A DNA stretch of 64,000 nt from Escherichia coli (GTDB lineage Bacteria > Pseudomonadota > Gammaproteobacteria > Enterobacterales > Enterobacteriaceae): NCBI RefSeq assembly GCF_009931435.1, contig NZ_CP043414.1; one strand, given 5' to 3'. This document shows, piece after piece, positions 28,448 through 30,555 of the stretch. A program made the position numbers and the translations under genes. The notes under the pieces were generated by a model, which searched no databases, was not told the DNA's origin, and saw nothing but the letters and a program-made list of their open reading frames with translations. Each line of letters begins with the position of its first letter. Within the stretch, counting starts at the first letter, position 1.

Positions 28448-29566
28448 ATGAAATACGATCTCATCATTATTGGCAGCGGTTCCGTAGGCGCTGCCGCCGG
28501 GTATTATGCAACCCGTGCCGGTTTAAACGTGCTAATGACCGACGCCCATATGCCACCGCATCAACACGGCAGCCACCACGGCGATACGCGATTAATTCGC
28601 CATGCTTATGGTGAAGGCGAAAAGTATGTCCCGCTGGTCCTCCGCGCGCAAACGCTGTGGGATGAACTCTCCCGCCACAACGAAGAAGATCCCATTTTTG
28701 TACGCTCGGGTGTCATTAACCTTGGCCCGGCTGATTCCGCATTTCTCGCCAACGTCGCCCACAGCGCTGAACAGTGGCAACTCAACGTTGAAAAGCTCGA
28801 TGCGCAAGGGATTATGGCACGCTGGCCAGAAATACGCGTCCCGGACAACTACATCGGCTTATTTGAGACTGATTCCGGCTTTTTACGCAGCGAACTGGCG
28901 ATTAAAACCTGGATCCAACTGGCGAAGGAAGCGGGTTGTGCGCAGTTGTTCAACTGCCCGGTCACCGCAATTCGTCATGACGATGATGGCGTAATTATTG
29001 AAACGGCTGACGGTGAGTATCAGGCGAAAAAAGCGATCGTCTGCGCGGGAACATGGGTAAAAGATCTGCTCCCGGAACTGCCTGTCCAGCCCGTACGCAA
29101 AGTATTTGCCTGGTATCAGGCCGATGGTCGCTATAGCGTGAAGAATAAATTCCCGGCGTTTACCGGTGAACTGCCCAATGGCGATCAATATTATGGTTTT
29201 CCGGCAGAAAACGACGCGTTGAAGATTGGCAAACATAACGGAGGCCAGGTTATCCATTCAGCGGATGAACGTGTTCCGTTTGCGGAAGTCGTCAGCGATG
29301 GCTCGGAAGCCTTCCCGTTCTTGCGCAATGTGTTGCCGGGTATCGGTTGCTGCCTGTACGGCGCTGCCTGCACCTATGATAATTCGCCTGACGAAGATTT
29401 TATTATCGATACTCTACCCGGCCACGATAATACACTGCTCATTACCGGCCTGAGCGGGCACGGTTTTAAATTTGCGTCAGTTTTAGGGGAAATAGCTGCC
29501 GATTTTGCGCAAGACAAAAAAAGCGATTTTGATTTGACGCCATTCAGGCTTTCCCGCTTCCAATAA
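28448..29566 (+). CDS. solA: N-methyl-L-tryptophan oxidase
   Basis: 372-aa [51 protein letters not shown]... (FAD-binding GSGSVG). Confidence 0.95.
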
Positions 29567-29576
29567 TCATCATTAC

Positions 29577-29600
29577 GGCCTCCAGAATGAGGCCGTTTTT
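29577..29600 (+). terminator. intrinsic terminator after solA
   Basis: cggcctc-cagaatg-aggccg followed by ttttt. Confidence 0.6.
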
Positions 29601-29727
29601 ACAGGAGTATTTAATGCGTCGGCTGTTGCACTATCTCATCAATAATATTCGCGAGCATCTGATGCTTTATCTTTTTCTCTGGGGACTGTTGGCAATTATG
29701 GACCTGATCTACGTGTTTTATTTTTAG
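29587..29727 (+). CDS. yceO: small membrane protein YceO (46 aa if ATG 29587; 37 aa if ATG 29614)
   Basis: Manual translation: (MRPFLQEYL)[37 protein letters not shown]. The internal ATG at 29614 has an AGGAG Shine-Dalgarno 7 nt upstream; the upstream ATG lies inside the solA terminator hairpin. Below the ORF-track size cut-off. Confidence 0.6.
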
Positions 29728-29988
29728 TTTTTCCGCACTGACATAAACTGACAAATATTTAATCTCCCTTTCATTTAGCGTGAAAAATTGAATGAGATTC
29801 TTCCTACCTCTACAGCACTCACCAGACCTTCCAGATGCTGAACCCACTAAACTTATGAAGATTCTTTCATTATTAATTCAAAATTATTGAAATAAAAATA
29901 AATATCATTCAATTTGTTATTTTTGTGTTGCAATTCATTCTCCGACACGCCATTTTCTTTCTCTCGCAAATTCGTTTTGGATGCACTT

Positions 29989-30555
29989 ATGTCATTCACA
30001 AATACCCCTGAACGCTATGGTGTTATATCTGCGGCCTTCCATTGGCTAAGCGCAATTATTGTCTATGGCATGTTTGCTTTAGGTCTGTGGATGGTCACGC
30101 TCAGTTATTACGATGGCTGGTACCACAAAGCACCCGAATTGCATAAAAGCATCGGCATTTTGTTAATGATGGGGCTGGTTATTCGCGTTCTTTGGCGTGT
30201 CATATCTCCACCGCCGGGTCCGCTGCAAAGTTATTCGCCCATGACTCGTGTTGGCGCAAAGGCTGGACATCTTGCATTGTACCTATTGCTCTTTGCCATC
30301 GGCATCAGCGGCTATCTGATCTCCACTGCCGATGGTAAACCGATCAGCGTTTTTGGCTGGTTTGACGTCCCCGCGACCCTTGCCGATGCAGGCGCACAGG
30401 CTGACTTTGCCGGTGCCCTGCATTTTTGGCTCGCGTGGAGCGTCGTAGTACTGTCCGTTATGCACGGATTTATGGCCCTGAAGCATCATTTCATCGATAA
30501 GGACGACACTCTGAAGCGCATGCTGGGAAAGTCGTCATCTGACTATGGAGTATAA
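29989..30555 (+). CDS. yceJ: cytochrome b561-family protein YceJ
   Basis: Track ORF trimmed to ATG at 29989 (MSFTNTPERYGVISAAFHWLSAIIVYGMFALGLWMV...), 188 aa. Confidence 0.9.
   Translation: MSFTNTPERYGVISAAFHWLSAIIVYGMFALGLWMVTLSYYDGWYHKAPELHKSIGILLMMGLVIRVLWRVISPPPGPLQSYSPMTRVGAKAGHLALYLLLFAIGISGYLISTADGKPISVFGWFDVPATLADAGAQADFAGALHFWLAWSVVVLSVMHGFMALKHHFIDKDDTLKRMLGKSSSDYGV

Follow-up and report, generated by a model that had tools for sequence, protein, structure and literature searches.

The window, a stretch of 64,000 nucleotides of genomic DNA, is from Escherichia coli, as a query of 551 bp finds a match in 5,424 of the 5,426 complete genomes of this species, the best of them at 99.8%. 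On its plus strand, the coding sequence of solA (N-methyl-L-tryptophan oxidase; 28448-29566, as given by the open reading frame list and, in near-identical E. coli records, by RefSeq) ends at a TAA stop codon (29564-29566) and is followed by a 46-codon open reading frame (29587-29727 in the same list) that corresponds to yceO as annotated from its longer start. An in-frame ATG at 29614-29616 opens a shorter form of 37 codons and a TAG stop codon (29725-29727), and it is this yceO coding sequence (29614-29727) that is the best supported. The two forms differ by a nine-codon extension (29587-29613; ATG AGG CCG TTT TTA CAG GAG TAT TTA), which is part of the 46-aa annotation only and within which lies the Shine-Dalgarno sequence of the short start, AGGAG (29603-29607), at a spacer of 6 nt from the ATG. 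Further downstream on the same strand, and relevant as context only, is the cytochrome b561 homologue yceJ (29989-30555, PGAP coordinates transferred from locus L001), separated from yceO by an AT-rich spacer of 261 nt (29728-29988). The order solA-yceO-yceJ-yceI in the window is the same as in E. coli K-12.

For comparison with relatives, a core alignment of 16 sequences was used to fetch 80 loci from species-representative Enterobacteriaceae genomes, giving 81 with the window; the genera among the 80 include Escherichia, Citrobacter, Salmonella, Enterobacter, Klebsiella, Raoultella, Kosakonia, Leclercia, Lelliottia, Cedecea and Buttiauxella. A SolA homologue lies immediately 5' of yceO in all 81 loci, with 10-115 nt between its end and the yceO start, and in 68 of them a yceJ homologue follows yceO in the same orientation. 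Between 29300 and 30100 of the window, a promoter scan returned no plus-strand sigma-70-like site, so that an internal yceO promoter is without support, and Rfam gave no credible match across the same interval. The sole promoter-like match in the yceO-yceJ spacer is on the minus strand (29912-29883), and a 78-aa minus-strand open reading frame (29611-29847), a purely mechanical call, overlaps yceO.

The hairpin downstream of solA

Between solA and the body of yceO there is a GC-rich hairpin followed by a T run (29575-29600, plus strand), a putative intrinsic terminator of solA that every yceO 5' leader would have to include. The 5' arm (ACGGCCTC, 29575-29582) and the 3' arm (GAGGCCGT, 29589-29596) form a perfect 8-bp stem with six G-C pairs, closed by a 6-nt loop (CAGAAT, 29583-29588); the foot of the stem is 8 nt past the solA stop codon, and the run of five T (29596-29600) has one T paired in the stem. 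The centroid structure calculated by RNAfold is exactly this hairpin, at -14.5 kcal/mol. The ATG of the longer start (29587-29589) is contained within it: its first two bases, A and T, are loop residues and its G opens the 3' arm. The codons that follow, AGG CCG TTT TTA, correspond to the 3' arm followed by the T run. The initial annotation had described the longer-start ATG as embedded in a hairpin with a T run, and all of these elements were located as claimed. It had further stated that the hairpin terminates solA: the location of the hairpin was borne out, and termination itself is better worded as a putative activity, given that a consensus scan called 0 terminators at this site, where the stem has just four or five T after it.

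Folded alone, the 81-nt context of the hairpin in the window does not give a significant structure (z = -1.39). Among relatives, a stable hairpin, defined as one for which no more than 5 of 100 dinucleotide shuffles are equally stable, recurs at this site in 71 of the 80 distinct intergenic regions from orthologous loci (mean z = -3.0), against 3 of 81 (mean z = +0.17) for control segments of the same length inside solA. Despite the weak single-window z, the hairpin therefore exceeds chance expectation. The stems at this position differ by lineage (ggcctc/gaggcc, ggctccg/cggagcc, gtggcgg/ccgccac, gcgaccc/gggtcgc and others), the hairpin being kept in place among relatives by compensatory change. 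The stem begins at a median of 7 nt past the solA stop codon, 66 of 73 loci having it at 3-12 nt, and with one exception 15-32 nt lie between its end and the yceO start; a T-rich tail is present in 55 of 73 orthologues. This pattern of sequence change supports a conserved structure that would be real, selected and solA-terminator-like, and the ending of solA transcription is its presumed role.

Two departures from the common arrangement were observed. In Klebsiella and Raoultella (L030, L065, L068, L069, L072, L080 and L082), where the gap between solA and yceO is 79-82 nt, the hairpin (aacggcctc...gaggccgtt) has an A run before it and no T run after it; it resembles a terminator of the opposite strand, yet there is no minus-strand gene that obviously needs one. 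Buttiauxella sp. A111 (L078) is the sole locus without an intergenic hairpin, has 10 nt between the end of solA and the ATG of yceO and resembles a plain, directly coupled operon.

The distance from the hairpin to the start codon at 29614 is just 17 nt, too short for a promoter, and hence every yceO mRNA would have to begin 5' of the hairpin or result from read-through of it. It is probable that yceO is expressed from solA read-through transcripts, and this dependence would explain the very low level of yceO. Storz and co-workers (2025; PMC12529367) found by immunoblotting that chromosomal YceO-SPA is present but at least 10,000-fold less abundant than the protein from a weakly induced plasmid, which fits expression through a terminator. 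The Term-seq supplementary tables of PMC7815308, as far as they go, have no 3' end for yceO and for solA have one internal Rho-dependent region only; low expression may account for the missing ends. The Rho-dependent region is at K-12 position 1120419 (approximately 28615 of the window), about 167 nt into solA, and would further cut the transcription that reaches yceO in LB.

The conserved spacing from the solA stop codon through the hairpin to the yceO start may simply be that of a well-placed terminator, or it may mark a control point for read-through into yceO. Beyond termination, it is conceivable, if rather doubtful, that the hairpin is a translation-sensitive attenuator, in which a ribosome ending solA at the foot of the stem would set the amount of read-through into yceO. 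The constancy of the stop-hairpin-start geometry despite the turnover of the stem is compatible with such an attenuator and, were it true, the synthesis of YceO would be tied to that of SolA.

Comparison of the two starts across Enterobacteriaceae

At the position of the short start, 74 of the 81 loci have ATG and five have GTG, and 61 of the 77 distinct orthologues carry a Shine-Dalgarno-like purine 4-mer at -15 to -5. The homologues retrieved by exhaustive HMMER and by word-indexed searches begin with MRR, and the N-terminal extensions that gene callers have added to some of them are mutually unrelated. ATG is found at codon -9 in just four of the 81 loci, those of the window, two other Escherichia genomes and E. 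albertii, and an in-frame stop codon falls inside the nine upstream codons in 24, both Salmonella representatives having theirs at -2. Entropy by codon position is flat from -27 to -1 (1.76/1.73/1.82) and periodic in the core (0.81/0.24/1.32), and, compared in pairs, the translations share on average 12% of residues over the nine codons and 68% over the core. Conservation of the upstream codons against that of the core had been put forward in the initial annotation as a check on its preference for the shorter start, and both measures point to that start. Within Escherichia, five lineages differ from the window, and in four of them the extension has at least as many non-synonymous as synonymous codon differences; in the core the synonymous differences are at least as numerous as the non-synonymous in every lineage. 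The tetrapeptide RPFL, which recurs in some extensions, is the translated 3' stem arm and T run.

It might be argued that the native product is nevertheless the annotated 46-aa protein from ATG 29587, perhaps made by re-initiation 20 nt past the solA stop codon through translational coupling, and indeed E. coli and E. albertii have an uninterrupted long frame that begins with ATG. However, outside Escherichia the extension is missing or interrupted by stop codons, in three further lineages of Escherichia codon -9 reads TTG, and the extension carries no coding signature. Across the 81 loci, the upstream start and the extension are not conserved in relatives, which also speaks against assigning yceO to the class of genes with two functional starts.

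A few loci depart from the common form at the short start itself. In Citrobacter sp. wls619 (L024, position 1322) the core start codon is ATA, and in Cedecea colo (L084, position 1477) the N-terminus is divergent, the aligned codon being TAT and an ATG lying one codon upstream; each may be a pseudogene, a sequencing error or a shifted start. The GTG codons at the conserved start belong to some Citrobacter lineages and one Leclercia (L032, L036, L037, L055 and L058) and are preceded by strong Shine-Dalgarno sequences, with anti-Shine-Dalgarno duplexes of up to -8.8 kcal/mol; at such loci gene callers push the open reading frame upstream, as in P0100.

The same alignments bear on the question of whether yceO is a gene at all. 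The frame is very small and very weakly expressed, it has no known function and it lacks an in-vivo ribosome-profiling start peak, as would be expected of a fortuitous frame in the spacer between solA and yceJ. However, purifying selection on it is strong across approximately 80 species, as seen in the low entropy at the second codon position and in six residues that are invariant in the 16-sequence alignment, the start codon and Shine-Dalgarno sequence are conserved, and YceO has been detected both as the chromosomal SPA-tagged protein on immunoblots and, as mentioned in PMC12529367, by top-down mass spectrometry. A spurious frame is thus the least probable of all the readings weighed here, and it was rejected on conservation and on the published immunoblots.

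Translation initiation at the two candidate starts

The energetics of ribosome binding agree in favouring the start at 29614. The duplex between the upstream 20 nt and the 3' end of 16S rRNA is just -1.7 kcal/mol for ATG 29587, which has no Shine-Dalgarno sequence, and -6.9 kcal/mol for ATG 29614, and the cost of holding the region from -15 to +13 single-stranded is 17.5 kcal/mol for the former against 5.3 kcal/mol for the latter. The initial annotation had given the longer start as lacking a Shine-Dalgarno sequence and the shorter one as preceded by AGGAG and encoding 37 residues, and it was right on both counts. A point on the side of the 46-aa protein is that the solA stop codon is 8 nt from the stem, so that a ribosome terminating there reaches the hairpin and could in principle melt it; against this stand the missing Shine-Dalgarno sequence and the high unfolding cost.

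Initiation-site profiling, which had also been named as a check, is available from INRI-seq (Hör et al., NAR 2022; PMC9825163), a cell-free method in which retapamulin Ribo-seq is performed on a synthetic E. coli transcriptome in PURExpress. The transcripts carry 30 nt of native leader and 51 codons, and the yceO template (Table S6) holds the full hairpin. At the annotated yceO start (1119447, minus strand) Table S2, whose columns were interpreted by analogy with the header of Table S3 and the methods text, records 0 CPM in five of five replicates and the call FALSE, and at the in-frame ATG at +27 Table S3 records a peak of 22.65 CPM in five of five replicates and the call TRUE (PMC9825163). 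Given that the 27-nt extension of K-12 is identical to that of the window and that the differences in the core, of which there are three, are synonymous, these K-12 data apply to the window. The profile thus bore out the proposed shorter start and, taken together with the comparative pattern, leaves the 46-aa protein from ATG 29587 a very improbable native product. A second and weaker INRI-seq peak, at an ATT 98 nt into yceO (K-12 1119348, approximately 29685 of the window; 9.66 CPM, three of five replicates, frame 'undefined'), is probably noise or an internal pause (PMC9825163).

In-vivo data sets are silent or uninformative as to the start. The INRI-seq tables re-score the Ribo-RET data of Meydan et al. 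and give 0/FALSE at both yceO starts (PMC9825163), yceO is absent from the TetRP tables (PMC4909307), TRAINSPOTTER N-terminomics has no yceO entry, and acid-stress Ribo-seq tables give yceO just at its annotated coordinates. The very weak expression of yceO accounts for the lack of an in-vivo initiation signal at either start.

It could be that both starts are used in E. coli, with the 37-aa protein as the major form and the 46-aa protein as a minor, lineage-specific proteoform. Rare initiation or re-initiation at 29587 on a solA read-through mRNA is allowed, the in-vivo data are silent at both sites, and E. coli genes often have alternative starts in frame (PMC9825163). However, initiation at both starts was not seen, since the INRI-seq peak is at +27 only and Ribo-RET is 0 at both; the extension is without selection and the upstream start codon is buried in a stable stem. 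A long product would in any case be non-conserved and probably without a function of its own. Use of both starts is therefore improbable, although less so than exclusive use of the upstream one.

Annotation and predicted features of YceO

The gene in the window is the same as b1058 of K-12 and biologically there is no difference between the two; they differ in the choice of start, which gives 46 aa in one and 37 aa in the other. The curated K-12 record (NC_000913.3) holds a 141-nt yceO and is the only record seen here with 46 aa, and the retention of this length by curators is a further point in favour of the long form as the native product. RefSeq, by way of PGAP, instead gives a coding sequence of 114 nt (37 codons and the stop codon) for the 'YceO family protein' WP_001253418.1, a call that was checked in three genomes, namely the best-matching strain, a K-12 MG1655 derivative and a third strain. 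Pfam DUF2770 (PF10968) matches residues 10-45 of the annotated protein with positions 1-36 of its 36-position profile (79.1 bits against a cut-off of 25; E = 2.4e-22) and, as the full profile aligns from residue 10, the family model begins at the internal methionine. Both boundaries leave the extension out. The family length of approximately 36-38 aa with an MRR start is matched only by the start at 29614, and homologues in Escherichia, Citrobacter, Enterobacter, Klebsiella, Salmonella and others begin at the aligned methionine or valine. NCBIfam has no HMM for the YceO family. The correction of the start is thus already known, in that Pfam, PGAP/RefSeq and a published supplementary table embody the short form.

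The 37-aa product consists of a polar N-terminus (residues 1-15, mean Kyte-Doolittle hydropathy -0.63) and a single hydrophobic helix (residues 16-37, mean 2.05), from which YceO is predicted to be a single-pass small membrane protein with its N-terminus inside and its C-terminus outside. In the 16-sequence alignment N10, N11, R13, E14, H15 and W23 (numbered from the short start) are invariant. The invariant polar motif NN[IV]REH adjoins the hydrophobic helix, within which D30 is nearly invariant (29641-29703 of the window), and the motif together with the aspartate in the helix points to interaction with a specific partner. Among E. coli variants of YceO, P0010, P0018, P0036 and P0052 have in-frame indels in the LYLF stretch of the helix (29665-29685, ctttatctttttctc), comprising deletion of LF and insertion of F, LY and LYLY, which suggest slippage on a CT-rich repeat and tolerance of helix length.

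Two YceO reporter peptides, of 10 and 11 aa, were seen only when the annotated 46-codon open reading frame was expressed from pBAD24 (PMC12529367). The long form, which accumulates from the plasmid and to that extent favours a 46-aa product, can be made from the ribosome-binding site of the vector and is stable; its production from the chromosome is not implied.

Discussion

The preferred reading is that the native product of yceO is a 37-aa small membrane protein of the DUF2770/YceO family that starts at ATG 29614, and a probability of about 0.9 is given to it. It draws on the observed anatomy of the sequence, the comparative pattern, initiation in vitro at +27 and the boundaries set by RefSeq and Pfam. 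The initial annotation had judged the shorter start to be the more plausible from the sequence, and the comparative pattern, the lack of a coding signature upstream, the Pfam boundary and INRI-seq are all in favour of that judgement.

In the mechanism proposed, AGGAG at 29603-29607 would drive initiation at ATG 29614, and the nine upstream 'codons' would be a non-coding leader made up of loop, 3' arm, T run and Shine-Dalgarno sequence. ATG 29587 would be a chance product of the hairpin, formed by two free loop bases and the first G of the 3' arm, and to use it a 30S subunit would need to melt a hairpin of approximately -14 kcal/mol. Given a start codon that is formed by chance, lacks a Shine-Dalgarno sequence and is locked in the hairpin, the 46-aa annotation is best seen as a longest-open-reading-frame artefact in the curated K-12 record.

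The consequences are mainly those of annotation hygiene, this being an ordinary correction of the start codon of K-12 b1058. The first nine residues of the 46-aa b1058 protein are probably never made from the chromosome. On the short-start reading, the 11-aa reporter peptide of the 2025 targeted-proteomics study would be undetectable in wild-type cells at any sensitivity, and the 46-codon pBAD24 construct would make a non-native protein (PMC12529367). For functional or structural work on YceO, an uncharacterised yet well-conserved small protein, the corrected start fixes the predicted N-terminus (MRR, positive-inside).

Compared with intrinsic terminators that lie just past stop codons, and with those inside operons that set how strongly a downstream gene is expressed, the hairpin after solA is alike in its GC-rich 8-bp stem, its 6-nt loop, its T run and a position conserved across genera; it is unlike them in having a tract of only 5 T, which a consensus scan does not call, and in that the Klebsiella and Raoultella versions have no T tail. 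The annotated yceO start can likewise be set beside the too-long annotated starts found by Ribo-RET, TetRP and INRI-seq. It differs from others that emerged from profiling in that its support is in vitro only, yceO being too weakly expressed for the in-vivo sets, but it shares with them the defining pattern of a downstream in-frame ATG with a Shine-Dalgarno sequence as the sole detected site and a silent annotated ATG, and it is among the 279 putative new sites that INRI-seq identified in genes with a silent annotated start (PMC9825163).
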